This document shows, piece after piece, positions 1 through 13,925 of a DNA stretch of 13,925 nt (position 1 is the first letter of the stretch; each line of letters starts with the position of its first letter). The notes beneath the pieces are model-generated. The model was given only the letters and a program-made list of their open reading frames with translations. It was not told the origin of the DNA and ran no database searches. The translations under genes and the position numbers were made by a program. The stretch is taken from positions 1 through 13,925 of the forward strand of contig CAYRPF010000036.1 in NCBI GenBank assembly GCA_964426185.1. The letters run 5' to 3'. The stretch is from an uncultured archaeon. GTDB lineage: Archaea > Asgardarchaeota > Lokiarchaeia > Sigyniarchaeales > Promethearchaeaceae.

Positions 1-2
1 AT

Positions 3-2414
3 ATGCTTTGGTATGATTATGATGATGACGGAAACGATGAAATGATATTTTTAGATCATCTCAGCGGGCGTATAAAGTTAATAGATGAAACCGGAGATCA
101 AGTCTGGAGTTTTCTATATGGTGGTGGATACAGTCGTTCTCCCATTTTAGCGGATATTAATAATGATACCGTTCCTGAAATATTATTTGCAAAGCAGAAC
201 GGCTATCTTTATGTGCTGGATCTGAAAACCGGAGCCCAGCTGTGGAACCGTTCAAACTCTGGTGGTAGTGGAGGAGGACACATAGAAGCAATTGTGGTAG
301 GTGATATAGATAACAGCAGCATGCCTGAAATTCTGTATGCAGATGACTCAGGATGGCTCACGATATTGGATTATCAAGGCAATTTCACTGCAGAATATGA
401 TTTAAATGGTGGTAGTGGAGTATATGCCGTATATTCTGCCGCTTTGGGTTATTTCATGTCATCTACAAATCTTTCTCTTGCATACGGCAATTCCCAAGGC
501 ATATTACGGGTAATAAATCCACTTAACGGTAGTATCCTATATGAAAGTCCGACAAATATTATATATGGTACCGGATCAATGGATTCTCCGCCGATAATTC
601 CTAATGATTTTGATGATGACGGATTGGATGAAATCATTATCGGTGATTATTGTCTTAGGATGGTCGATCCCGCTGATAATGCGATTGTTTACAATTCTAC
701 ATTCTATGGAAAAGTAAGGTATAATATGTTAATGGACAACTTTGATAACGATGACGGCTTAGAAATTCTGGTTCAAACAATGGATAACGGTATTTTCTTG
801 TTTGATATCGAAGGGCGCCAGACTAAATGGCATTATAAACCCAATGCAGGAACAATTTATGATATTTCTCTAGGTCATCTGCAAGAAGATGAAGGAAATG
901 ACGTGGCTATTGCTACATCTTTGGGTTACATTATTGCTGTTGATGGTTTGACTGGAAACATGATCTGGTTCAATTATACCGGGGATCAGTATATGGGAAT
1001 TGCATGTTTGTCCAAATCCAACTCAAATATGTTTTATACAACCGTATGGGATAATGTAGGTTTAATCCATCAATTCGGCTCGTATCGTATCAATTGGACT
1101 GAAACACCCCCAGCATTTGTAGAACGGGCGTTGGATTATACGGTAAATGTAAAAACTAATGATATTACTCTTTGGAGTAAAGACATCAACGCAGATGGCA
1201 TCGATGAATTGATTTGGCTGGCTGACGATGATTATTTGGTTGTTTGGGATTATATCAAGCGGGAATCCATTTGGGAATTTCAATTCGAGAAAAAAGTGGA
1301 TTTCATACGCTTTGGGGATTTAAATCAAGATGATCCAGACTTAGAATTAGTGGTGGTTCTTAATAACGGTTTAGTTCAAGTATTTGAGGTATTGAAGGAT
1401 CAAATGCTGGTTGAAATAAAACCTGACGAATATTACAGCGCAACCGAAGTTTTAATTGCCAATTTCGATGCAAATTACCAAGGTGATGAGTTAGCGATCC
1501 TTTACGAGAAGTCCGAAGGTGCTGATAATGCCATGATCGAATGGTTTGATTCTTTGGGCAAGCTGCTCCATCGGAGTGAATATAATTACTCCAATTTAGG
1601 TGTTAAAATGGTTCCCATCCACGACTCTTCCTTAACAACTTGGGATATCGCCACAGCTGGTTATTTTGGATATGTGGATGTTTTCAATGGGCAAGACGGG
1701 AAACGTAGTCATCATTTCCCTTATGGGTCAAGTGTTTACGAATTAATTGCGGGAGATTTTAATGGAGATGGCTATAGTGAGCTGGTTACCTCCAATTCAA
1801 TTGATACTTTAGTCTACTGGGATCTTACTGGTGGAGGTGGTTCTTTCTTAAGTCTAGCTTTTGGAACCGGTAATGTTCTCCATATGGAAATGGCTGATAT
1901 TTTCCAGAACGATTCTCGCCAAGAGTTGGTTGTAATCCAAGATGAAGTGGGTGTGGTGGCTTACGAAATGTCGCCGAGTTCTATAAGCGATTATAAATGG
2001 ATCTACCATGCTCCCCTAATTATTGGAGAAAAACACTGTCAGATGATGATTGCGGACCATAATCACGATGGATACCTGGATCTTTCCTTTAAAAACTATA
2101 ATTATTGGAACGTAATAGACGGCAAAACAGAGCGGTTATTATGGCATTATCAAGCTGATACCCCTCTGGAAGATTTCACACCGGGATTTTTCGACGAGAA
2201 AGGAGAGATGATAGGAATGGCCTATCGGGTAAATAACACCGTCAATTTCATATCACACAAGCCCACAGAGATTCCAATGGGCGGTCAAGGTGGTGGAATT
2301 CCTGCAAATATAATGGGAATTACTCCAGAACAAATTACAATGATCGCATTCTTTTCAGCCGTTCCTTTGACCTTGGGAATTATCTACGTGATAATGAGGA
2401 AAAATCGCAAATAG
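3..2414 (+). CDS. FG-GAP/PQQ-repeat beta-propeller cell-surface protein with C-terminal membrane anchor (probably 5'-truncated by the window edge)
   Basis: About 12 Dx(D/N)xDG-like Ca-binding loops (DYDDDGNDE, DINNDTVPE, DFDDDGLDE, DINADGIDE, DFNGDGYSE, DHNHDGYLD). PQQ-like motifs LDLKTGAQLW, VDGLTGNMIW and IDGKTERLLW. Gly-rich linker, then hydrophobic helix IAFFSAVPLTLGIIYVIM and basic tail RKNRK. No signal peptide at the visible start and no upstream in-frame stop within the window. Confidence 0.85.
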   Translation: MLWYDYDDDGNDEMIFLDHLSGRIKLIDETGDQVWSFLYGGGYSRSPILADINNDTVPEILFAKQNGYLYVLDLKTGAQLWNRSNSGGSGGGHIEAIVVGDIDNSSMPEILYADDSGWLTILDYQGNFTAEYDLNGGSGVYAVYSAALGYFMSSTNLSLAYGNSQGILRVINPLNGSILYESPTNIIYGTGSMDSPPIIPNDFDDDGLDEIIIGDYCLRMVDPADNAIVYNSTFYGKVRYNMLMDNFDNDDGLEILVQTMDNGIFLFDIEGRQTKWHYKPNAGTIYDISLGHLQEDEGNDVAIATSLGYIIAVDGLTGNMIWFNYTGDQYMGIACLSKSNSNMFYTTVWDNVGLIHQFGSYRINWTETPPAFVERALDYTVNVKTNDITLWSKDINADGIDELIWLADDDYLVVWDYIKRESIWEFQFEKKVDFIRFGDLNQDDPDLELVVVLNNGLVQVFEVLKDQMLVEIKPDEYYSATEVLIANFDANYQGDELAILYEKSEGADNAMIEWFDSLGKLLHRSEYNYSNLGVKMVPIHDSSLTTWDIATAGYFGYVDVFNGQDGKRSHHFPYGSSVYELIAGDFNGDGYSELVTSNSIDTLVYWDLTGGGGSFLSLAFGTGNVLHMEMADIFQNDSRQELVVIQDEVGVVAYEMSPSSISDYKWIYHAPLIIGEKHCQMMIADHNHDGYLDLSFKNYNYWNVIDGKTERLLWHYQADTPLEDFTPGFFDEKGEMIGMAYRVNNTVNFISHKPTEIPMGGQGGGIPANIMGITPEQITMIAFFSAVPLTLGIIYVIMRKNRK

Positions 2415-2426
2415 CTGAGATAAATC

Positions 2427-2448
2427 ATTTTTTGATTATTTTTTTTTC
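2427..2448 (+). terminator. Putative archaeal oligo-T terminator
   Basis: T-rich run (ttttttgattattttttttt) beginning about 12 nt after the TAG stop at 2414. Confidence 0.45.
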
Positions 2449-2516
2449 CTTCCAACTCCATTCAAACCAAAAAAAATATATTTCATCGACCTTTGCATTG
2501 CATAGTTGAAGATCAA

Positions 2517-2762
2517 ATGAGAAGCCCCTCTCTTCATTTACACTTTAAATCCTTATATGGAAAGGAAGTTAAAATTCGAGTAAGACTCTATCAGACCTAT
2601 ATCAAGGGTCATCTCGAATCAGTGGATGAATTTTCCAATGTCCTCCTCAAAAATGCAATAGAATTTCAAAAAAATGAAGAAACGGGTGAATTGATCGAAA
2701 AAGAAAAGTTTGACACCTTGCTATTACGGGGTGACTCTATAATCAACTTAGCAACAAATTAA
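2517..2762 (+). CDS. Sm/Lsm-family RNA-binding protein (SmAP1 locus)
   Basis: Sm1 motif GKEVKIRV...KGHLESVDEFSNVLLKNAIE and Sm2 motif LLLRGDSI. Lies directly upstream of rpl37e, the conserved archaeal arrangement. ATG at 2517 preferred over the TTG at 2493. Confidence 0.92.
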   Translation: MRSPSLHLHFKSLYGKEVKIRVRLYQTYIKGHLESVDEFSNVLLKNAIEFQKNEETGELIEKEKFDTLLLRGDSIINLATN

Positions 2763-2777
2763 ATTAATGCAACACAC

Positions 2778-2782
2778 GGTGA
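2778..2782 (+). promoter_or_regulatory. Shine-Dalgarno-like GGTGA for rpl37e
   Basis: GGTGA lies 6 nt upstream of the ATG at 2789. Confidence 0.55.
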
Positions 2783-2788
2783 AAACTT

Positions 2789-3040
2789 ATGGGTAAAGGT
2801 ACACCATCATTTGGAAAGCATAATAAAGCTGCAACACATTCTATTTGTCGTCGATGTGGTAGCCGTTCGTATCATAAAAGGAAAGGAGTCTGTGCTGCTT
2901 GTGGTTTTGGACGGACAGCTCGCTTACGCACTTACAATTGGAATGTAAAAATTCGAGCGGCTAATGGTCAAAAAGCGCGCAATGGTCGAAAAGAAATGTT
3001 CATTCGGAAAGTAAAAGGCAAGCATACGAAGAAACATTAG
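2789..3040 (+). CDS. rpl37e: 50S ribosomal protein L37e (eL37)
   Basis: [11 protein letters not shown]-terminus, zinc finger CRRCG...CAACGF and RTYNW motif. Confidence 0.97.
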
Positions 3041-3065
3041 TTGCTTTACTTTCGTGTAATATAAT

Positions 3066-3113
3066 TGTAATATTAATAACTACAATAAAAAAATATTACA
3101 GCGGTACTTTTTT
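3066..3113. terminator. Inverted repeat plus T tract between the convergent rpl37e and ABC permease genes
   Basis: TGTAATATT (3066-3074) and AATATTACA (3092-3100) form a perfect 9-bp inverted repeat. An A run lies in the loop and a T6 run follows. Confidence 0.4.
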
Positions 3114-3146
3114 ACTCCCTTCTTTATTCAGCAAATTATCTTCAAA

Positions 3147-3818
3147 TTATAACATTTTACGGTCAATGACAAATGCGATGGCAATATTGACAATAAGCGC
3201 AAGTACTATTCCCACAGAAAGTGAATAAAGAACCGTGTTTACTTCGGAGAAGAAAATTCCTGGCAGAACTGCTACCATACTGAGTTGATTTCCTGCGTAA
3301 ATAGCTAAAATTGCCGCTACCATGGTTGAATTTACTAATAATCCGATTAATATGGAAAAAGAGCAAGATATCGCCATAGTGCTCATGCTTACTGCCAATG
3401 AATCCCATAATCCATCTAGCAAAATATCAACATGAATATCCGTTTTTATCAAATCCACCACTAATCCTAGTAGAATGCTTAAAACAGTGGCAATCATAAT
3501 GCACACATATACCGCCACAAATTTAGAAAACATCAAATGCCAGCGTTTCACGGGCCGAATAAGGAATAAATCATAAACGTGCCGCTCTTTTTCGGAAACA
3601 ATGGTTGTGCTGAGCATAACCGCAGCTAGTGTACCGCTTAATGAAGATACCATCAAACTTACAAATACACTCAAAGGAATTTCCTCTGTGTCTGGGCTTA
3701 AATAACTAATTACCAAACTAAGAAGGGGCATACCAATCCAGAGAACCATCATTACTTTAGATTTGTAAAAACCCTTAAATTCATCCCGAATCAATAATCC
3801 TAAGCTCATTTTAGTCAT
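3147..3818 (-). CDS. ABC-2 type transporter permease
   Basis: About 6 hydrophobic segments. Motif IVSEKERHVYDLFLIRPVKRWHLMFSKF matches the ABC-2 E(K/R)E.G....L..P..R....K pattern. Overlaps or abuts the ATPase stop (start 3818 or 3809). Confidence 0.92.
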   Translation of the reverse strand: MTKMSLGLLIRDEFKGFYKSKVMMVLWIGMPLLSLVISYLSPDTEEIPLSVFVSLMVSSLSGTLAAVMLSTTIVSEKERHVYDLFLIRPVKRWHLMFSKFVAVYVCIMIATVLSILLGLVVDLIKTDIHVDILLDGLWDSLAVSMSTMAISCSFSILIGLLVNSTMVAAILAIYAGNQLSMVAVLPGIFFSEVNTVLYSLSVGIVLALIVNIAIAFVIDRKML

Positions 3819-4830
3819 CTTCCTCTACATAGCGCAAGTAAACTTCTTCTAAAGAGGGTTGAAGGAGATTAAAACTCCGCACGATGCATTTTTGATTGGT
3901 AAGTTCATTCATGATTGAAACCAAAGCTTGATCGAGATTGATCTTTGGTTTTAGAGTCAATACGGTCTTGTTTGCTGAAATTTTTTTCGTATGAGCTACT
4001 TGAGGTATTTTCATGAAATCAGGCAAAATTTTCTGATTTTCACCAAAAATAATTTCAATTTCATTTCCTACATTGAATTTGGCTTGAAGTTCTTGAGGTG
4101 TCCCCACATTGAGAATTTTACCGTGATTAATAATCGCAATTCGATCAGCAATATCTTGGACATCAGATAAAATGTGACTACTGAGGAAAATTGTAATATT
4201 TTCATCTGCCAATTGCCGAATAATTTTCTTCATTTGATAGCGACTGGATGGATCTAAACCCGTCATGGGTTCATCTAATACTAAGAATTGGGGTTCATGA
4301 AGCAGAGCTTGGGCTAACCTTAATTTTTGCTGCATACCGCTTGAGAGATGCACAATTTTCTTGTGTTTCACATCTTTAAGACCTACTTTCTGAAGAACAT
4401 CATCAATTCGAGCGGGTAGCTTATCAGTATCATATCCCGATAGACGACCAAAAGTATCTAAGAGATGGTAAACTGTTCGCCATGTTTGAAAACCCACATC
4501 TTGAGGTAAGTATCCTAAAATTTTGTGAATTGAGTTCTCCAATTTATTCACCGTTTTCCCGTCAAGTAAGATAGTACCTTTATAAGATCGGATTAATCCC
4601 ACAATAATCTTCATGGTAGTTGTCTTTCCTGCACCGTTGGGTCCAATATAACCTAAAATTTCTCCCCGTTTCAGCGAAAGGTTGAGATTATCCAAAGCGG
4701 TAAAATCGCCGTAGAGTTTGGAAATTTGCCGCAGTTCTAAAAATGGTTGTCTATCAGTTGGATGTTGTATCAAATCATCGCTTTTTGAAATATTTGAGAT
4801 TTCTGGATGTTTAAGGAATTTTGTTGACAT
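3811..4830 (-). CDS. ABC transporter ATP-binding protein (CcmA/DrrA-like exporter)
   Basis: Walker A GPNGAGKTT, Q-loop GYLPQ, signature LSSGMQQK, Walker B LVLDEP, H-loop SSH and C-terminal PSLEEVYL. ATG at 4830 is preferred, with AAGGAG upstream at 4845-4850. Confidence 0.95.
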   Translation of the reverse strand: MSTKFLKHPEISNISKSDDLIQHPTDRQPFLELRQISKLYGDFTALDNLNLSLKRGEILGYIGPNGAGKTTTMKIIVGLIRSYKGTILLDGKTVNKLENSIHKILGYLPQDVGFQTWRTVYHLLDTFGRLSGYDTDKLPARIDDVLQKVGLKDVKHKKIVHLSSGMQQKLRLAQALLHEPQFLVLDEPMTGLDPSSRYQMKKIIRQLADENITIFLSSHILSDVQDIADRIAIINHGKILNVGTPQELQAKFNVGNEIEIIFGENQKILPDFMKIPQVAHTKKISANKTVLTLKPKINLDQALVSIMNELTNQKCIVRSFNLLQPSLEEVYLRYVEEDD

Positions 4831-5100
4831 TTTATCGAAGTTATCTCCTTGTAAGAATAAAAACAAATTTTGAGTATTTAAATATAAATGTTATATGCCA
4901 AATTTTTTAAACATTGGTATATATCATTTTATGTAAATAATGGGATAAAACAAATATAAAGTTTGCGATCATGCATTGAAAACAGCTTATTGGGTGCAAC
5001 TGCGCACGAATTCTGAAATATGAAGGATTTTATCATGACAGATAATAAAAATCGGAAAATAAGTGGAAAAATTTTGAGAAATGGGAAAAAAGGTGCAGAG

Positions 5101-5748
5101 ATGAATAAAGAAGAAATATTCAAGATACTAAGTGACGAGACAAATTTTGAAATATTGATGGCACTTTTTTCCCGTAATGAATTGATATTAAGTGAATTAG
5201 ATGCTATCATTGCCAAGAGCCGTTCCACCATCCACCGTCATATTCAAGATTTAATTTCATCAGGATTTATCCTTGAATCTAAAGAAAAAGTGATAAAAGG
5301 TCCAATTCCAGCAAAATATTATAAACTTAATTTCAAGAAATTTGTTTCAATTCCTTCACTTTCTATGGATCAAGTTCAAAGTTTATCAGAGGTTGAACGA
5401 ATTAAAATTTATTCGCAAATTAAGCAAACATATTATACCATGATTACATTTTTATCAAAGATTTTAGTTAAAATCCAAACCTTTTTACAGAAATTAACAC
5501 CTGAGAATTCTACAAATTTTGAAGAGATGCTTAATTTTAATGATCCCAGGTTTTTTGCTACACTTAACTTGCTGACTGAACCGCAAAAAACACTCTATCT
5601 GCGGAGATTTCAAGAATTTTCTCAATCATTCATGCAAGAAATAATGGAAAAAAATATGTTTGACCCTCAAGATCCATTCAAAGATCCAAAGCCTTTTCTT
5701 TTAACGACTTTACTTGCTCCAATCCAATCGCTTTTCAAAAATGAATAA
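5101..5748 (+). CDS. ArsR-like winged-HTH transcriptional regulator with C-terminal helical domain
   Basis: FKILSDETNFEILMAL...LSELDAIIAKSRSTIHRHIQDLISSGFI...KYYKL. Divergent from the ABC operon. Start is uncertain (5020, 5035 or 5101). Confidence 0.85.
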   Translation: MNKEEIFKILSDETNFEILMALFSRNELILSELDAIIAKSRSTIHRHIQDLISSGFILESKEKVIKGPIPAKYYKLNFKKFVSIPSLSMDQVQSLSEVERIKIYSQIKQTYYTMITFLSKILVKIQTFLQKLTPENSTNFEEMLNFNDPRFFATLNLLTEPQKTLYLRRFQEFSQSFMQEIMEKNMFDPQDPFKDPKPFLLTTLLAPIQSLFKNE

Positions 5749-6029
5749 GGATCACGAGAGATATTCCTTCCTTTCTTGATAAAGGTGTAGTAAATAATTA
5801 AAACACTACAGAGGAAGCGCTGCTCCCTCAAGTTAATACCTTTTTTCATCAAAAAGGAACTGGTCAATAACCCACAAAATTCCCTTTTCGTGCTTTTTTT
5901 TTTCACTTTTCAAGCATATCATTTCCCACTTTGATCACATCTTTAAAACCCCTCCTCTTTAGTATACATGATCCTTTAATGTTTAACATAATCGATGGTA
6001 TTCGGGATCGTTAGTTAAAACTCAAGGAA

Positions 6030-7295
6030 ATGAGACATATGTCATCTGAAACCAATCCCTTTCAAAATGCATTAAAACAATTGCGTCTTGCTTGCGATGC
6101 GATGGGCATCAATGAAGATATTTATACTTATTTGTCTAATCCAACCAGAATGGTACAAGTTGCTGTTCCCGTAAAAATGGATGATGGTCATTTAAAAGTA
6201 TTTGAAGGTTTTCGTGTGCTTCACAATTCTGCCCGCGGCCCGGGAAAAGGAGGTATCCGTTACGCCGCAAATGTCGACTTAGATGAAGTGAAAGCTTTAG
6301 CTATGTGGATGACCTGGAAGACCGCTTGCGTAGGAATTCCCTACGGTGGTGCCAAAGGTGGTGTACGAGTCGACCCACGACAATTATCCGATGCAGAATT
6401 GGAGAGACTAACCCGCCGATTCACTGCAAATATTATCAATGTTATAGGTCCTGAGACTGATATCCCCGCTCCTGATATGAACACCGGACCACGAGAAATG
6501 GGATGGATGATGGACACCTATTCTATGCAAAAAGGTCATGTTGTACACGGGGTTTGCACCGGAAAGCCGGTTGAGATTGGTGGTTCATTGGGCCGAACTC
6601 AAGCCACTGGACATGGAGTTGCTTTCATTGCTCATGAATATGCCAAACGACATGGATTTAAGCCAGAAGAATCAACCATGGTTATCCAAGGTTTTGGTAA
6701 TGTCGGTCAATACACCGCTTTAACCGCAAAAGAATACGGCTATAAGGTTATTGCAGTTTCTGATATTTCTGGAGGATACTACAATCCTGATGGATTGGAT
6801 GTGGATGAAATATTTGCCTACATCTCTGATCCCGCCCACCGTACCTTAGAAGGATATGAAAAAGCTCAAAAAATCACCAATGAAGAATTATTGACCTTAG
6901 AATGCACCATTTTGGCTCCTTGTGCATTAGAAAACCAAATTACTCCCGAAAATGCTCCGAAACTCCGCTGTAAAGCAATTGTTGAGGGTGCTAACGGACC
7001 AACCACTCCGGAAGCCGATAAAATTTTAGAAGAACGCGGTATTGATGTAATTCCCGACATTTTAGCCAACGCTGGTGGTGTTACTTGCTCCTACTTCGAA
7101 TGGGTGCAAGATCGTATGGCTCTTTTCTGGGATTTAGAACGTGTGAATGAAGAATTAGATAAAATAATGTTACGGGCATTTGATTCAGTTTATCAGCTGG
7201 TTCAAGATAAAAAGATCAGTTATCGTATGGCTGCTTATTTTGTAGCAGTAGAACGTGTGGCCAAAGCCATTGAAATGCGCGGAATTTATCCATAA
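6030..7295 (+). CDS. gdhA: Glutamate dehydrogenase, NAD(P)-dependent (Glu/Leu/Phe/Val dehydrogenase family)
   Basis: GPGKGGIRY, MTWKTA, GGAKGG, DIPAPDMNT, TGKP, GGSLGR, QGFGNVG (Rossmann), EGANGPTT and ANAGGVTCSYFEWVQ. An alternative start at 6039 follows AAGGA at 6024-6028. Confidence 0.96.
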   Translation: MRHMSSETNPFQNALKQLRLACDAMGINEDIYTYLSNPTRMVQVAVPVKMDDGHLKVFEGFRVLHNSARGPGKGGIRYAANVDLDEVKALAMWMTWKTACVGIPYGGAKGGVRVDPRQLSDAELERLTRRFTANIINVIGPETDIPAPDMNTGPREMGWMMDTYSMQKGHVVHGVCTGKPVEIGGSLGRTQATGHGVAFIAHEYAKRHGFKPEESTMVIQGFGNVGQYTALTAKEYGYKVIAVSDISGGYYNPDGLDVDEIFAYISDPAHRTLEGYEKAQKITNEELLTLECTILAPCALENQITPENAPKLRCKAIVEGANGPTTPEADKILEERGIDVIPDILANAGGVTCSYFEWVQDRMALFWDLERVNEELDKIMLRAFDSVYQLVQDKKISYRMAAYFVAVERVAKAIEMRGIYP

Positions 7296-7340
7296 TTTAT
7301 CAGTAATATATTCAATATGATTTGTTTTGATAAAATATAC

Positions 7341-7358
7341 CTTTTTTTCCCTTTTTGT
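7341..7358 (+). terminator. Putative oligo-T terminator of gdh
   Basis: ctttttttccctttttgt about 45 nt after the gdh stop. Confidence 0.4.
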
Positions 7359-7378
7359 ATGATTTCTATTTGCTCTAC

Positions 7379-7521
7379 AACATTATATCTTCTTAACATT
7401 CGAATAGTTGAAGCTATATGATTGAATTACATCAAATTTATTTGTTAACATAACATTGTATCTTCTTAACATTCGAATAGTTGAAGCTTTATGATTGAAT
7501 TACATCAAATTTATTTGTTAA
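7379..7521 (+). repeat. Tandem direct repeat, 2 x 70 bp (period 73), covering the upstream region and first 10 codons of the 7TM gene
   Basis: Copy 1 is 7379-7448 and copy 2 is 7452-7521. There are only two mismatches (A7385/G7458, A7416/T7489). Confidence 0.97.
7418..7453 (+). other. 11-codon upstream mini-ORF MIELHQIYLLT* created by the duplication
   Basis: ATG at 7418 to TAA at 7451-7453. Its first 10 aa are identical to the N-terminus of the 7491 CDS. Translation is unproven. Confidence 0.5.
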
Positions 7522-8378
7522 TTGCCAAGATTGTAGAATTGGCTTTATATTTTTATGCCGTTTTTGCATTGAATAAAAAATATCATGGAGTAAAATTTTC
7601 AGATAGACCAGCCTTGCATCGATTTTTCATTACAGGGTTAAGCGGTTGGATCATTTATTTGTTTTTTGATTCGATAATATATGTAATCGCTCCATTATCC
7701 ATTCCAGAATCAGCAACAATTAATGCAGTTAACGTTGTCTTTTCTGGTTATGATTCTGCTTATCCTTCATTATTGTGGGCAAATATTTTACGTGATTTGG
7801 CTATCCCCGGTGCACTTTTTATGGCATGGACATATTGTGGTGCTTCAGTTCTAATTAATCGAGGGACAAACATTAATGAAGATTTTCTTTTTTCTGATGA
7901 TCTAGTGTTTCCAAAACATTGGAAGATTCCTATTAAGAAGAAGCAATTATACCCAGTATTAGCGTTTCTATTTATATTGCTAATGGTTTATTTAGATCGA
8001 ATTGAAGTTCACGTCATAGCTGATGGAAAAATTCATGTAACCTCCGCATGGGGTATAATAAATTCACTCTCACTTATATTGTTCTTTACATTTGCCACTA
8101 TCTTGATGGTTCAACAGATGAGATTTCTACGAACCAGGTCAATGGAACTTGAGTACAAGCGTCGAGCACTATTTTTGGGATGGGGTATCATTTCTTTTAC
8201 TATCGGATTATATTATTGGGCGTTAACGGGAATCATATTTCAAAATATGACTGCTTCTGAGACTCTAATTTTAGTATTTCTCTACTTAGGGCACGTGATT
8301 TGGAGTTCTTCGGCCATATTTATCTTTTTTGCGTTCCATCAAAAAGGAAAATCTAAGGAAAATAATATAGAATCATAA
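7491..8378 (+). CDS. Hypothetical integral membrane protein, about 7 TM helices (stand-alone receptor-like)
   Basis: Seven hydrophobic stretches (approx. aa 7-27, 45-67, 94-122, 153-168, 187-207, 226-250, 259-282). Basic loops 1, 3 and 5 and a basic C-tail. Confidence 0.8.
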   Translation: MIELHQIYLLIAKIVELALYFYAVFALNKKYHGVKFSDRPALHRFFITGLSGWIIYLFFDSIIYVIAPLSIPESATINAVNVVFSGYDSAYPSLLWANILRDLAIPGALFMAWTYCGASVLINRGTNINEDFLFSDDLVFPKHWKIPIKKKQLYPVLAFLFILLMVYLDRIEVHVIADGKIHVTSAWGIINSLSLILFFTFATILMVQQMRFLRTRSMELEYKRRALFLGWGIISFTIGLYYWALTGIIFQNMTASETLILVFLYLGHVIWSSSAIFIFFAFHQKGKSKENNIES

Positions 8379-8482
8379 ATAGAAAGTAACAGATTTATTA
8401 ATTTTAATTTCTCTGTGAAAAGGAGATAAAAAAGAATCTTTTATAACTTTTATTTCTTATTTTTTCATTATTTCATCTATTA

Positions 8483-10027
8483 TTATGATTCAACGGCAAG
8501 ATCTTCAATTTCATCGTATGTAATTGTACCACGCAGCAATCGGGAAGCAATTGAAACCAATTCTGCTTGAGAGATCCGCTTTTGAGACATATCCTCAATA
8601 CTGCGAATGGTTAAGGTATTATCATCTAAGGTTTGATGATCTATCGTAAAGGCATAACGAACACCCACTTCCTCAGTTCTACGGTATCTTTTCCCAATCG
8701 AACCTGTTTCGTCATAAATCGCACTGATATCATTATCAATCAATTGTTGATAAATTTCAAGGGCAACTTTGCTCAATTCTTCTGGTTTTTTCATCAAAGG
8801 AAATACGGCAAAAGGAATGGGTGTTATCTGAATCGGAAGATCTAACACATTACGCTCTTCTTCAAAGGAAAAGGCTTGTTCTAAGCAGAAAAAGAACAGA
8901 CGGCCCAAACCAAATGCAATTTCAAGAATGTGCGGAATGATTTTTTCACCCTTATTCGGTCCAGGCACTTGCAGTTGTTTCTTTTTTGAGAATTTAAAAT
9001 GGCGTCCCAAATCGTAATCCCCTCGATCATGAATTCCACAAACTTCAGTCCACCCATATATTTTAGAGTTGATTTCCAAATCCCACGCATCATGGGCGTA
9101 ATGCGCCTTTTCATCATTTTTATGTTGACGAAGTCGAATATTTTCTTCAGGGATCTCTAAACCTTTGACCATATCGTAAGCCAAATACAACAACCATGCG
9201 TAGGCGGGTTTTTGCAAGACTTTCTTATCAATTGCTTCTTGAAGTGAAAAAAATTCAACTTTATCGTTTCCTGCAATTTGTTGAGATGCGGACAATAGCG
9301 GAATTTTTTCCTCTTTGTATAATGAATGAAGTTTAAAATCCATTTCTTGTTCTGGTGTAATAAAAATTTGTCCTTCACATTGTTCAAATTCTCGGGTACG
9401 CAGAAGCATTTTTCGGGGGGAAATTTCATTGCGGAACGCGTATCCCATCTGGAAAACGAGAATAGGCAACTTGGTTCGAAAATACTGATATAAGCGGGGA
9501 AATAACAGATAAGTGGTTGTTGCGGTTTCTGGACGTAGGATGAATTCTTTAGCAGGAAATCCCAATTGGGAAGTTACCATAAGATTTTGTGTGGTTACTT
9601 TTCCCAGTTTTCCTTCACAGTCGGGACACACGATATTGTTTTCATCTATAATTTTCTGAAATCCTTCCAAGCTGAAATTTAAGAGGTTGTAACCTAATGA
9701 TTCTAAAAGAGTATCCGCACGATGCACGTGTTGGCATTTTGGATTACAACACTGGACAATATAATCGAAAAATCGTTCTGCATGGCCAGATGCCTTCCAA
9801 ATCATATCCGAGCCGATTAAAGGGCATTGAACTTCCCAGAATTGGAATTTACGAAATTTTTTCCGTATATAATTTTCCAAGTTTGTTTTCATCAATTTTC
9901 CTAAGGGTCCAAATTCGTAAGAGCCTTTTACGGGATTGTAAATTTCTGGTGATGGCCCCCAAATAAAGCCTCGATGGGACATAAGCATCAGAATTTTCGT
10001 TGCATCATCATCTAACTTTTCCGACAT
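8483..10027 (-). CDS. glyS: Glycine--tRNA ligase, archaeal/eukaryotic alpha2 type
   Basis: YEFGPLG, WKASGH, LRPETA, FRNEISPR..LLRTREFEQ, RLRQH..DEKAHYA, GWTEVCGIHDRGDYDL and anticodon-binding GSIGKRYRR. Cys-rich insertion CCNPKC...CPDC. AAGGAG upstream at 10039-10044. Confidence 0.93.
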   Translation of the reverse strand: MSEKLDDDATKILMLMSHRGFIWGPSPEIYNPVKGSYEFGPLGKLMKTNLENYIRKKFRKFQFWEVQCPLIGSDMIWKASGHAERFFDYIVQCCNPKCQHVHRADTLLESLGYNLLNFSLEGFQKIIDENNIVCPDCEGKLGKVTTQNLMVTSQLGFPAKEFILRPETATTTYLLFPRLYQYFRTKLPILVFQMGYAFRNEISPRKMLLRTREFEQCEGQIFITPEQEMDFKLHSLYKEEKIPLLSASQQIAGNDKVEFFSLQEAIDKKVLQKPAYAWLLYLAYDMVKGLEIPEENIRLRQHKNDEKAHYAHDAWDLEINSKIYGWTEVCGIHDRGDYDLGRHFKFSKKKQLQVPGPNKGEKIIPHILEIAFGLGRLFFFCLEQAFSFEEERNVLDLPIQITPIPFAVFPLMKKPEELSKVALEIYQQLIDNDISAIYDETGSIGKRYRRTEEVGVRYAFTIDHQTLDDNTLTIRSIEDMSQKRISQAELVSIASRLLRGTITYDEIEDLAVES

Positions 10028-10139
10028 CTATTTCTTTACTCCTTATGGCAATTTAGTGTTGCTTTTTTCTTTAACATTTCGTTGCTAATATTTTCGTGGA
10101 AAAATTAATCAATCTAATTATCAATACTATATTTGAAAC

Positions 10140-13121
10140 ATGGTTGAATTTGATGTAAATGAGAACCATTTCGAATACAAACCGAAATATCAAGTTTTTC
10201 ATAGCCTAATGAAGCATCGGATCAAAGAGATCTTGTTGGTTTCCAGTATTTATGATAATTTCATTTTGGAAGAAGATGGGCGCTTATCGGATCAAATTTA
10301 TGCTGAATTCCTGGATTTAAACCTCAGAACCCTCCCACATTTTACTAGAGTTTCATCCGCCCAAGAAGCATTTGATCTTTATAAAAAAAGAGAATTTGAT
10401 TTAGTTATAACCATGAGACGTTTGTATGATTCCGACCCATTTGAATTTGGACAGCAGATTAAAAAGATCCGAGACATTCCAGTAGTTTTATTGTTGACCA
10501 GTCTTTCAGAAATTAATTATTTGCCAGATTTTACCAAAAAGAGAGAAGGAATCGATTTAACCTTACTTTGGAATGGTGATAGTGCTATTTTCATATCGCT
10601 TACTAAGTTATTAGAAGATCGCCTAAATGTGGAAGAAGACACGAAAAACGGTTTAGTCAGGACCATTATTATTATCGAACATTCCATCCGGTTTTATTCC
10701 TTGTATTTACCTTTAATTTATGGAGAAATTATGCGTCAAGTACAATATCTTATTCAAGAAGGATTGAATGATTACTATCGATTACTCCAAATGAAAGCAC
10801 GTCCCAAAATTATTCTTACCCATACTTATGAAGAAGCCATGGAGTATTATAAGAAATATAAGGATTTCATTATTGGAATTATTTCTGAAGTAGAGTTTCC
10901 CCGAAATAACGTTATGGATAAAAACGCTGGAATTGATTTTCTTACAAAAATTCGGAAGGAGTCTCCCACTATCCCCGCAATTTTACAATCTAATAATTCT
11001 GAGTGCCGGAAAAAGGCTGAAGAAATACAAGCACATTTTATCCACAAGAAATCTAAATCACTTTTGAAAGATATTAGGGAGTTTATGCTACAATATATGG
11101 GGTTTGGAGATTTTATTTTTCGTTTAGAAAATGGAGAACAAGTTGGAAAAGCATCCAATTTGCATGAATTTAAGGAGGCAATTAGGCAAGTTCCCCTTGA
11201 ATCATTATATTATCATGCTTCTCACGATAATTTTTCTGGTTGGTTGATGGCGCGTGGCGAGTTTCACATGGCTTCTATTCTAAAATCCAAACATGTAAAT
11301 GATTTTGAATCTAAAGAGGCGATTCGTGATTTCTTACACGATTCGACCCAGTTTTTAATAGAACAGAAGAAAAGAATCGTAGTAGATTTTCGAAAAGATA
11401 GTTATCATCCTGATTCCAATTTTATTCGATTACGCCCTGGATCTTTAGGAGGAAAAGGTCGGGGTCTGGCATTTATGATGTTTCTGTTAGATCGATTCGA
11501 TTTTTCCCTTTATCGCCAAGTAGATATCACCATTCCGCAGACAATTGCTATTGGAACTGATGAATTTGATAATTTTATGGAACAAAATAATTTGCACCGA
11601 GTTTCCCAATCCCAAGATCTGGATGATCAAGAAATCTATAGGATTTTCAAGAAAGCTAAACTTTCTCATCAATTAAAAGAAGATTTGAAGTTTATTTTGA
11701 AAGATTGGCAAGGCTATCCGATTGCGGTTCGAAGTTCTTCAATTGTGGAAGATTCTCAATTTCAACCTTTTGCGGGAATTTTTGGCACTTACATGTTGTC
11801 CAATCAAGAAAAAAGTCTAAATGTGTGCTTGGAACGAGTTTGTGAAGCAATTAAGTTGGTATATGCTTCTACTTTTTCACAATCTGCCAAATCGATTCGA
11901 AAAGCAATGGGTTTGCGGATTGATGAAGTAAAAATGGGAGTATTGGTTCAAAAGGTAGTGGGGAAAAAGTACTCTGATGGAAAGTATTTTTATCCTAATT
12001 TTTCAGGAACAGCAAGCAGTTTTAACTATTATCCAATTGGAAAAATGAAATTTAGTGATGGAATCGCGTCTCTTGCATTAGGTTTGGGGCGAATTATCGT
12101 CAACGGAGGAAAAGTAAGAAGTTTTATCCCGACACATCCTAAGGTCAATTTCTTTTCAAGTGTGCAAGAAATTGTGAAAAACAGCCAAAATGAATTTTTT
12201 GCCATAGATTTAACCAGAAAAGTCAAACAAATAGCAGATGAAGAATCATATTTGGTTAAAATGAACATTTTAGAAGCTAAAGATGATGAGAATTTGGATT
12301 TGATTGCGGACACCTACAACCATGAGAATGATGTGATTCAGTCCGGTCTTTGGGAAAATAATCCAGGATTTCCCGTAATTACTTTCAATCGGCAGCTTTT
12401 ATTTGATAAAACTTTCCCTCTCCCTGAAATCCTGTTAGAAGTATTAAAATTGGGTGAAAAAACCATGGGTTCTCCCGTCGAGATTGAATTTGCTTGTAAT
12501 TTTCAAAAAAATCCTAACGAGAAGCATTCCATGAATCTGCTACAAATTAGGCCCAGTTTTGAGATACCCAATAATGAATTAGAAGAAATTGAATCTTTAG
12601 ATATAGGAGATGCATTGGCATATACTGATTACTTTTCTGGAAATAGCATTTTTAAAAATATTAGGAACATTGTGTATATCAAATCTTCATCATTTGATAA
12701 TCTTAAAACCCTTGAAATGGCAAATGAGATTGATTACTTTAACCGGAAATTGACTGAACTGAAACAACCTTATCTCTTAATTGTGTTTGGTCGGTTGGGA
12801 ACATTTGATAGATTTTTAGGAATTCCAGTTAAAGAGTATAATATTACTGGAGCAAAGGTTATTATTGAAACCGGAACGAAAGACTTTCAGATTGAGCCAA
12901 GTCAAGGAACCCATTTCTTTCAAAATATGATAAGTGCAAAAACAGGTTTTCTTTATATCAGAAATGGGGTAAAGAATGAGTTTCTTGATTGGGAATGGGT
13001 GAAGAATTGTCCAATTGCGGAAGAAAAACAATTCTTTGCACATGTTGAGTTATCATCTCCCCTATTTATTGTATTAGATGGTAAAAAGAAACTTGCTGTG
13101 GTGAAAAAGCAAAAAAATTAA
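10140..13121 (+). CDS. Receiver-domain-fused PEP synthase/PPDK-like ATP-grasp protein (REC-like x2, DUF5752-like, PPDK_N, putative His-swivel domain; no pyruvate-binding barrel)
   Basis: ATP-grasp motifs GSLGGKG (434-440), AVRSS..ED...FAG, MGVLVQKVV, LGLG..IV.G, EIEFA (781) and LQIRP (801-805). N-terminal CheY-like segments FDLVITM...IPVVLL and IISEVEFP...GIDFL..IR...PTIPAILQS. C-terminal PSQGTHFF with H925. Confidence 0.85.
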   Translation: MVEFDVNENHFEYKPKYQVFHSLMKHRIKEILLVSSIYDNFILEEDGRLSDQIYAEFLDLNLRTLPHFTRVSSAQEAFDLYKKREFDLVITMRRLYDSDPFEFGQQIKKIRDIPVVLLLTSLSEINYLPDFTKKREGIDLTLLWNGDSAIFISLTKLLEDRLNVEEDTKNGLVRTIIIIEHSIRFYSLYLPLIYGEIMRQVQYLIQEGLNDYYRLLQMKARPKIILTHTYEEAMEYYKKYKDFIIGIISEVEFPRNNVMDKNAGIDFLTKIRKESPTIPAILQSNNSECRKKAEEIQAHFIHKKSKSLLKDIREFMLQYMGFGDFIFRLENGEQVGKASNLHEFKEAIRQVPLESLYYHASHDNFSGWLMARGEFHMASILKSKHVNDFESKEAIRDFLHDSTQFLIEQKKRIVVDFRKDSYHPDSNFIRLRPGSLGGKGRGLAFMMFLLDRFDFSLYRQVDITIPQTIAIGTDEFDNFMEQNNLHRVSQSQDLDDQEIYRIFKKAKLSHQLKEDLKFILKDWQGYPIAVRSSSIVEDSQFQPFAGIFGTYMLSNQEKSLNVCLERVCEAIKLVYASTFSQSAKSIRKAMGLRIDEVKMGVLVQKVVGKKYSDGKYFYPNFSGTASSFNYYPIGKMKFSDGIASLALGLGRIIVNGGKVRSFIPTHPKVNFFSSVQEIVKNSQNEFFAIDLTRKVKQIADEESYLVKMNILEAKDDENLDLIADTYNHENDVIQSGLWENNPGFPVITFNRQLLFDKTFPLPEILLEVLKLGEKTMGSPVEIEFACNFQKNPNEKHSMNLLQIRPSFEIPNNELEEIESLDIGDALAYTDYFSGNSIFKNIRNIVYIKSSSFDNLKTLEMANEIDYFNRKLTELKQPYLLIVFGRLGTFDRFLGIPVKEYNITGAKVIIETGTKDFQIEPSQGTHFFQNMISAKTGFLYIRNGVKNEFLDWEWVKNCPIAEEKQFFAHVELSSPLFIVLDGKKKLAVVKKQKN

Positions 13122-13175
13122 ACAAAATATGTTATTTTCGAATATTATGCAATTTTTCTGCTCGGAATGTTCACT

Positions 13176-13640
13176 CTATTTAGGTTCTTTTTCTTCTTGA
13201 GGTTCAAGAAGACTGAGGATTAGATTAGTTCCGAAAATTATGGCTTCATCACATCTCTTCTTACGGTCTGATTCGCGTTCTTCTATTGTCTGATGATTTT
13301 CATCTCGAAATTCATTTGTCAAGCCATAACATGTGATTGAACTGAATTTATCATGGAATTTTTTTCTAAATTGCGCGCTTTTGTCGAAAATATTATCTTT
13401 ATCAAATCCTTGACTATGAAGAAGATAACTTAAAGCGGCTAAACAACCAGAAACAATACCACATACATCTCCTTCATCAAAACCTCCGCCAAAGGGATAA
13501 AACGAATGATAGCAGACCTGAGCTTGCGAATTAAATTGAAATCGTTCCAATATTCCGGCGGCACAAGATTGAGCGCAGTTGCTGTTGTTTGACCAATATT
13601 GAGCAACTTCTGGGATTAACTTATTTGTTTTCTCGTACAT
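13176..13640 (-). CDS. C_GCAxxG_C_C family putative redox-active protein
   Basis: NCAQSC, FGGG....DVCGIVSG, SITCYGL and KRCDE give the four-Cys pattern of the family. Confidence 0.88.
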   Translation of the reverse strand: MYEKTNKLIPEVAQYWSNNSNCAQSCAAGILERFQFNSQAQVCYHSFYPFGGGFDEGDVCGIVSGCLAALSYLLHSQGFDKDNIFDKSAQFRKKFHDKFSSITCYGLTNEFRDENHQTIEERESDRKKRCDEAIIFGTNLILSLLEPQEEKEPK

Positions 13641-13723
13641 TTTTAGAAGAGATAATTAATTATTCCTTAATTATTTTATTTAAAGATAATTATAACTATT
13701 CCGCACTCGCAGAAGTAAGATAT

Positions 13724-13800
13724 TGGTGGGAAAGGGATGATTCGAACACCCGACCACTTGACCCCCAGTCAAGTATCATACCAAGCTAGACCACTTTCCC
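13724..13800 (-). tRNA. tRNA-Pro(GGG), intron-less, CCA encoded
   Basis: Reverse complement is GGGAAAG TG GTCTAGCTTGGTATGAT A CTTGA CTGGGGG TCAAG TGGTC GGGTG TTCGAAT CATCC CTTTCCC A CCA. This gives a full cloverleaf with anticodon GGG, G1-C72, A73 and G15. Confidence 0.97.
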
Positions 13801-13925
13801 ATGAAAATTGAGTTCTATGTGGAATTAAGAAAAGAATTCTATTAAAATTTTTGATAAGCGTTATAGCTGTTGATAACCAATTTGCTTGTGTTGGTGAAAA
13901 TATTCTTTAGGAACTTATTTCATCA

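Follow-up and report, generated by a model that had tools for sequence, protein, structure and literature searches.

A receiver-dikinase gene in an Asgard archaeon

The window, by which we mean the whole 13,925-nt stretch of DNA analysed here (assembly GCA_964426185.1, contig CAYRPF010000036.1, positions 1-13,925, forward strand), comes from an uncultured Promethearchaeaceae archaeon (Asgardarchaeota, Lokiarchaeia, Sigyniarchaeales). One of its genes, at 10140..13121 on the plus strand, encodes a 993-aa protein in which receiver-like domains precede an ATP-grasp of the kind found in pyruvate phosphate dikinase (PPDK) and phosphoenolpyruvate (PEP) synthase. From the N-terminus, and all on the same strand, the protein comprises a pseudo-receiver (REC1, aa about 25-172, 10212..10655), a receiver-like domain (REC2, aa about 173-308, 10656..11063), a middle domain made of a beta-hairpin plus helices (aa about 309-430, 11064..11429), the PPDK_N-type ATP-grasp (aa 431-805, 11430..12554) and a 188-aa swivel-like C-terminal domain (aa 806-993, 12555..13118) that bears a histidine, H925 (codon 12912-12914). 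In Pfam, PPDK_N (PF01326) matched aa 435-813 with an E-value of 3e-38, the Response_reg match was weak, and the middle domain gave a faint match under the cut-off to DUF5752, a family on which our literature search found no paper. The same search returned nothing relevant on PPDK_N joined to a receiver, and the top scores of a feature search in the ESM Atlas (0.88) lay under the level at which that search counts a match as more than a lead. Among relatives of the protein, the closest (68-79% identity) are from Lokiarchaeota and Promethearchaeum, and Heimdall, Hod, Thor and Odin sequences come next at ~50%.

A preliminary description of this DNA, made from its sequence, had read the ATP-grasp motifs as intact, and a comparison of 53 diverse orthologues bears this out: K439, R531, E781/E783, Q802 and R804 do not vary among them (K9, R101, E351/E353, Q372 and R374 in the alignment of aa 431-993). 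It had also supposed that no PEP/pyruvate TIM barrel is present, and this holds for the protein. Neither PEP-utilizers (PF00391) nor the PEP-utilizers_C barrel (PF02896) was matched in the Pfam scan of the 993-aa protein, and the 92%-complete source genome yielded no stand-alone barrel, its sole PEP-utilizers_C barrel sitting inside a complete canonical 897-aa PPDK on contig C3. That some pipelines name relatives of the protein ‘phosphoenolpyruvate synthase’ would fit a genuine PEP synthase or PPDK whose barrel is supplied in trans. However, besides the lack of a free barrel, the NCBIfam matches to PEP synthase are all partial (62 bits against a cut-off of 883), and we regard this explanation as scarcely credible. 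The NCBIfam models for rifampin phosphotransferase (RPH), PigC and RedH likewise cover the ATP-grasp part only and score far under their cut-offs.

The C-terminal domain carries the motifs G-R-x-G-T, G-I-P-V and S-Q-G-T-H925-F-F (SQGTHFFQN is encoded at 12900-12926). The preliminary description had taken it for a divergent swivel domain with H925 as phosphocarrier, and had named invariance of the histidine as one way to check this. H925 proved to be invariant in 118/118 full-length orthologues and in all 152 C-terminal domains from 50%-identity representatives, which were collected with phmmer rather than by motif; these share S-x-G-[ST]-H-F-F-[HQ]-N, in which S, G and [ST] flank the histidine throughout. 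The domain itself immediately follows PPDK_N, and its S, G, H and FF are invariant. G-R-W-G-T, G-I-P-V and E910 are invariant in the domain as well.

The fold of this domain could be modelled with AF2 (aa 806-993, pLDDT 90.4). Foldseek found nothing in the PDB at E <= 1e-3, and its weak list (RraA, PPDK, fumarase beta, chaperonin apical domains and LD-carboxypeptidase) consists largely of what we take to be other swivelling beta/beta/alpha superfamilies (SCOP fold c.8). An exhaustive structure search with VIA-align, used after Foldseek and read with the caution that Z ~7 is common for models without a clear match, placed the PPDK phosphoryl-carrier domain 2fm4 first (Z 7.3, rmsd 3.7, 117 residues aligned), followed by residues 377-511 of maize PPDK (1vbg, Z 7.1), the C-domain of Bacillus pyruvate kinase (Z 6.8), a DRTGG domain (Z 6.7), the His domain of RPH (5hv1, residues 756-867, Z 6.6) and Enzyme I N-domains (Z 6.3, 5.7 and 5.6). 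The predicted structure thus supports a swivelling beta/beta/alpha fold. In the model, H925 opens helix 120-127, after a strand and a loop, and the catalytic histidine of PPDK likewise follows a strand and a loop and begins a helix. When the aligned ranges are interpolated linearly, H925 would fall near His455/458 of PPDK and His825 of RPH. We infer that H925 may act as a phosphocarrier.

The swivel-domain proposal therefore stands as regards fold, with carrier domains the best matches (Z 6.3-7.3), and as regards the invariant histidine, but not as regards sequence homology. Related genomes supplied 14 canonical mobile domains for an hhalign comparison with the C-domain profile, and the probability was 0.3%, which indicates no sequence relation. 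This result, together with the fact that a DRTGG domain and a pyruvate kinase C-domain score like true carriers, leaves room for a different reading, in which the C-terminal domain is a ligand-binding or docking domain of swivel-like fold, H925 carries no phosphate, and the ATP-grasp serves as a ligase or an ATP sensor. We consider it unlikely in view of the invariant histidine with its flanking residues, its position at a helix N-terminus as in the carriers, and the complete set of ATP-grasp catalytic residues. To our knowledge, the characterised PPDK_N-type ATP-grasps (PEP synthase, PPDK, RPH and glucan water dikinase) all phosphorylate a histidine, and we count this against the reading as well. 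A profile search of the C-domain against PDB sequences matched longin domains (VAMP7) only, at E 0.03-0.08 over 65 residues, which we judged to be due to chance.

Receiver domains and the acceptor aspartate

The two N-terminal CheY-like domains of the preliminary description are present as folds, but neither has the acceptor aspartate. In the AF2 model of aa 1-432 (pLDDT 82.6), the best Foldseek match was the tandem-receiver protein PleD (E 4.5e-8 over ~300 columns), and tandem-REC structures were matched at E 4.5e-8 to 1.6e-5. As in PleD-type regulators, a receiver and a pseudo-receiver are paired ahead of an enzymatic output; the window protein differs in having the pseudo-receiver first, in having a dikinase-like output instead of GGDEF, and in that its second receiver is also without the aspartate. 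According to the modelled fold and the alignment of orthologues, REC1 is a pseudo-receiver throughout the family, with S35/S36 in place of the acidic pair and T91 (10410-10412) in place of the acceptor. REC2 keeps the full receiver set in most family members (E180-D181, D250, S284 and K303). In the window protein, E180, S284 and K303 are retained, whereas position 181 is a histidine (codon cat, 10680-10682) and position 250 a glutamate (codon gaa, 10887-10889). D250 is present in 116/118 orthologues, the Promethearchaeum one (P0006) among them, and Glu250 is found only in the window protein and its 79% relative, in both of which residue 181 is His or Asn. At these sites the contigs of three to four public runs all carry the letters of the window, with two of the runs maybe being the source sample. 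The sequence of window positions 10640-10940 was found in identical contigs from public marine and hydrothermal-vent metagenome runs of several studies, some of which may be the window's own sample. No RNA run was listed as containing the sequence.

Comparison with the 79% relative gave dN of 0.10-0.19 against dS of at least 1.5 in every measurable domain, REC2 included; dS is saturated, and undefined for two domains, which limits the claim to dN lying far below dS. Because it does, the receiver-dikinase gene of this lineage appears to be under purifying selection, and its protein maintained rather than decaying. Asp-less receivers have been found to be enriched among PPDK outputs in a survey of aspartate-less receivers (PMC4395418).

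These observations bear on the acceptor that the preliminary description had considered, namely a receiver of the protein itself: phosphate would pass from H925 to a receiver aspartate, with a dikinase standing in place of a GHKL kinase. Since T91 and E250 occupy the two acceptor positions, this relay is excluded for the window copy as its sequence reads, and so is phosphorylation of a receiver aspartate by any kinase; the other public contigs agree at these positions, and the purifying selection on the lineage speaks against a decaying gene. At the level of the family, a His-to-Asp step is chemically possible, most REC2 domains having the residues it would need. However, paralogues without receivers, in this genome and in others, keep the same His motif, for which reason a receiver cannot be the general acceptor, and a PAS histidine kinase encoded beside gdhA in Asgard loci is an ordinary donor candidate for the receiver. 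A relay within the protein is therefore very improbable.

A widespread family linked to glutamate dehydrogenase

The C-terminal domain occurs in 1038 representative clusters, always after PPDK_N, while the N-termini vary (REC-REC, DUF5752-like, none, or a tandem duplication). PPDK_N and the C-terminal domain are thus the core module, to which variable N-terminal parts are joined. The family is found in at least 590 species genomes from many bacterial phyla, Asgard archaea and Thermoplasmata, including cultured Flavobacteriaceae. The source genome has two proteins with this C-terminal domain, the product of the window gene and a receiver-less paralogue of 881 aa on contig C41 (L116:7998-10643), which has the motifs G-R-W-G-T and S-L-G-T-H-F-F and a 300-aa N-terminus without assignment. 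Two family members stand side by side in 15/87 loci, and one metagenomic protein (P0137, 1639 aa) contains two PPDK_N stretches and two stretches of the C-terminal domain.

Long family members were also seen on large nuclear contigs of three Preaxostyla eukaryotes, Blattamonas nauphoetae, Monocercomonoides exilis and Paratrimastix pyriformis (P0193, P0308 and P0309). We placed these homologues by tree, single-segment BLAST matches being ambiguous owing to inserts. A quick maximum-likelihood tree groups the three as a single clade (SH-aLRT 99) within sequences of which the named ones are bacterial. They do not stand beside the 22 best matches of the window protein, a monophyletic set in which the named sequences are Asgard. 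This suggests that the Preaxostyla copies were acquired from bacteria by transfer.

The strongest functional clue, which the preliminary description did not contain, is linkage to glutamate dehydrogenase (GDH). A GDH gene adjoins a family gene in Promethearchaeum, in a Heimdall genome, in a Thor genome and in a metagenome-assembled Bacteroidales genome. The two genes are also neighbours in the cultured Gillisia limnaea DSM 15749 and Lutibacter oceani. Over the 87 loci compared, GDH lies within 10 kb of the family gene in 54 and directly beside it (gap <600 bp) in 45, with 37 of these 45 pairs co-directional; among the 60 loci that have at least 3 kb on both flanks, 39 have a GDH within 3 kb. 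No other neighbour is conserved, and the cluster that ranks second is found in only 7/87 loci. Most of the linked GDHs (48/64) belong to one E. coli-GdhA-like subfamily, whose members are 55-79% identical across domains. In some bacterial loci (L027, L045, L048, L053, L066 and L081), two GdhA-type genes flank the dikinase gene. No paper linking the receiver-dikinase family to GDH was found, even with a wider search on GDH and response regulators.

A complex prediction for the core of the protein (aa 431-993) and the GdhA of the same genome gave an ipSAE of 0.53 (runs 0.53, 0.58 and 0.51), against 0.00 for the best control. Between runs, at least 88% of contacts are shared, and the partner has a pLDDT of at least 85; the result was graded as weak support. 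The ipSAE mark used was passed by 58/80 solved complexes and 2/110 mismatched pairs, and scores up to 0.60 came from 7/80 of the former and from both passing mismatches. Given the strong prior from gene linkage, the predicted complex modestly raises the odds of physical contact with GdhA.

Linkage of this kind could also reflect a shared pathway. In that case the protein would be a small-molecule dikinase (compare RPH, PigC/RedH and flavonoid phosphate synthetase) in which H925 relays phosphate to a metabolite, for example one related to the GDH reaction. In RPH, too, the ATP-grasp comes before a His domain at the C-terminus, the partial NCBIfam matches to the PigC, RedH and RPH models fall in the ATP-grasp, and the additional invariant motifs of the C-terminal domain, G-R-W-G-T, G-I-P-V and E910, could form a ligand site. 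However, we identified no insert in the protein that would bind a substrate, and further pathway genes are not conserved near the family loci. N-termini of signalling type, with REC in this protein and other sensor-like domains in its paralogues, fit a regulator better, and the weak pass of the complex with GDH points to protein contact. On balance we hold a small-molecule substrate to be improbable, though a more serious contender than a relay to the protein's own receiver.

In the source genome the parts of this module are spread over three contigs, one with GdhA and a hybrid kinase, one with the receiver-less paralogue and one with the window gene. The GdhA-type GDH, on contig C81 (L117:7953-9296), is 79% identical to its Promethearchaeum counterpart that neighbours a family gene. 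Facing it in convergent orientation is the gene of a PAS-HisKA-HATPase_c-REC hybrid histidine kinase (L117:9530-11161), which runs off the contig end. This kinase is a candidate for the original donor to the family's receiver; PAS sensor proteins also occur beside gdhA in Heimdall, Thor and Hermod loci. The receiver-less paralogue is present in 17/21 related genomes and lies directly beside gdhA in at least 8, and is far commoner there than the receiver type.

The window itself encodes a GDH paralogue of 421 aa (6030..7295, plus strand), 2.8 kb upstream of the dikinase gene, whose role in the system is uncertain. It is 35% identical to the GdhA-type partner and 43% to a third GDH on contig C57, and is thus not of the conserved partner type. 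A rough estimate of the chance of finding a GDH within 3 kb is ~0.5% (three GDH genes in 3.26 Mb), and the proximity is not kept in a 70% relative (L119). Two genes separate the pair, a 295-aa open reading frame without a Pfam match (7491-8378, plus strand) and a class II aminoacyl-tRNA synthetase gene (8483-10027, minus strand). The window also encodes an Sm-like protein and ribosomal protein L37e. In the 79% relative (L120:4199-7869), five extra genes, including ParB_N and PAPS_reduct/DUF3440 genes, lie between the dikinase gene and a C_GCAxxG_C_C gene; the window lacks all five, which resemble an inserted island.

A possible dikinase-type partner of glutamate dehydrogenase

The nearest functional precedent is VadK (Rv1127c), a truncated PPDK from Mycobacterium tuberculosis. 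Given ATP and Mg2+, it autophosphorylates on His422; it binds methylcitrate-cycle enzymes and regulates metabolic enzymes by direct interaction (PMC13400623). It offers a published example of a histidine kinase that is derived from a dikinase rather than from the GHKL fold, and by analogy a model for the window protein: both have an ATP-grasp and a His domain, and both are without the PEP/pyruvate barrel. By the description in its paper, VadK differs in being about 490 aa long, in having no receivers, in having a histidine that could be placed by overlay on solved PPDK structures, and in its methylcitrate-cycle partners (PMC13400623). The window protein, in contrast, has a carrier domain remodelled beyond sequence recognition, two receiver-like domains, and GDH as the linked enzyme. 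Like RPH and PigC/RedH, it has an ATP-grasp ahead of a swivel-like His domain at the C-terminus (Z 6.6 for RPH) and no TIM barrel. RPH differs in that it is without signalling domains and that its substrate is an antibiotic, for which it has a dedicated binding domain as an insert. With PEP synthase and PPDK the window protein shares a PPDK_N ATP-grasp in which the Lys, Arg, Glu and Gln/Arg residues are kept and a C-terminal domain whose best structural matches are their carrier domains (2fm4 and 1vbg); it differs from them in having neither the PEP-utilizers_C barrel nor a sequence match to PF00391, in a genome that has its own complete PPDK.

Our preferred explanation, to which we give a probability of roughly one half, is that the protein is a barrel-less, PPDK-derived, VadK-like dikinase that autophosphorylates on histidine and acts on or with GDH. 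The ATP-grasp would bind ATP and pass a phosphoryl group to H925 on a swivelling C-terminal domain, as in PPDK, PEP synthase and RPH. The charged C-terminal domain would then act on the GdhA-type GDH, or change its own binding to that enzyme, much as VadK does with the methylcitrate-cycle enzymes. In most family members, the pair of pseudo-receiver and receiver could gate phosphotransfer through phosphorylation of Asp250, in Asgard archaea probably by the PAS histidine kinase encoded beside gdhA. In the present lineage, D250E and D181H leave REC2 unphosphorylatable, so that the gate would be locked or else respond by a different route. The gene has also moved away from gdhA and from the kinase.

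Several points weigh against this explanation. The equivalence of H925 to the catalytic histidine rests on the order of secondary structures and on interpolated aligned ranges, the Z scores of about 7 for the C-terminal domain lie within the range common for models without a clear match, and the hhalign comparison with canonical mobile domains was negative, as described above. The window gene is not adjacent to the GdhA-type GDH, which sits on contig C81, and in a complete genome of the same genus (G001), where the parts of the module are hundreds of kilobases apart, the window-type gene and the GdhA-type GDH are separated by 292 kb. Moreover, the GdhA-type GDH is present in 19/21 related genomes and the receiver-type protein in only 3/21, from which it follows that GDH does not need the receiver-type protein. 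Finally, the predicted complex passed only weakly by its score, and the prediction came with no interface.

More tentatively, and with doubts that outweigh our confidence, the family as a whole could be a new class of post-translational GDH controller. Its members would be AMP-forming, dikinase-type protein-histidine kinases, normally receiver-gated, that dock on GdhA to phosphorylate it or to switch it allosterically, and the class would be a conserved one, reaching from Bacteroidota and Acidobacteriota to Asgard archaea, and would have been passed to Preaxostyla. The window copy would then be a natural variant in which the gate is fixed by an Asp-to-Glu change.

GDH stands at the junction of carbon and nitrogen metabolism and has a central part in the life by amino-acid fermentation that has been proposed for Asgard archaea. 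If our explanation is right, a conserved, ATP-driven and signal-gated partner of GDH would constitute an undescribed layer of control in hundreds of species, and the idea put forward for VadK, that dikinases can evolve into regulatory histidine kinases, would extend to a much larger and older family. The window copy is useful as a natural experiment, in which the acceptor aspartate has become a glutamate and the gene has been parted from gdhA and the histidine kinase, while apparently still being under purifying selection.

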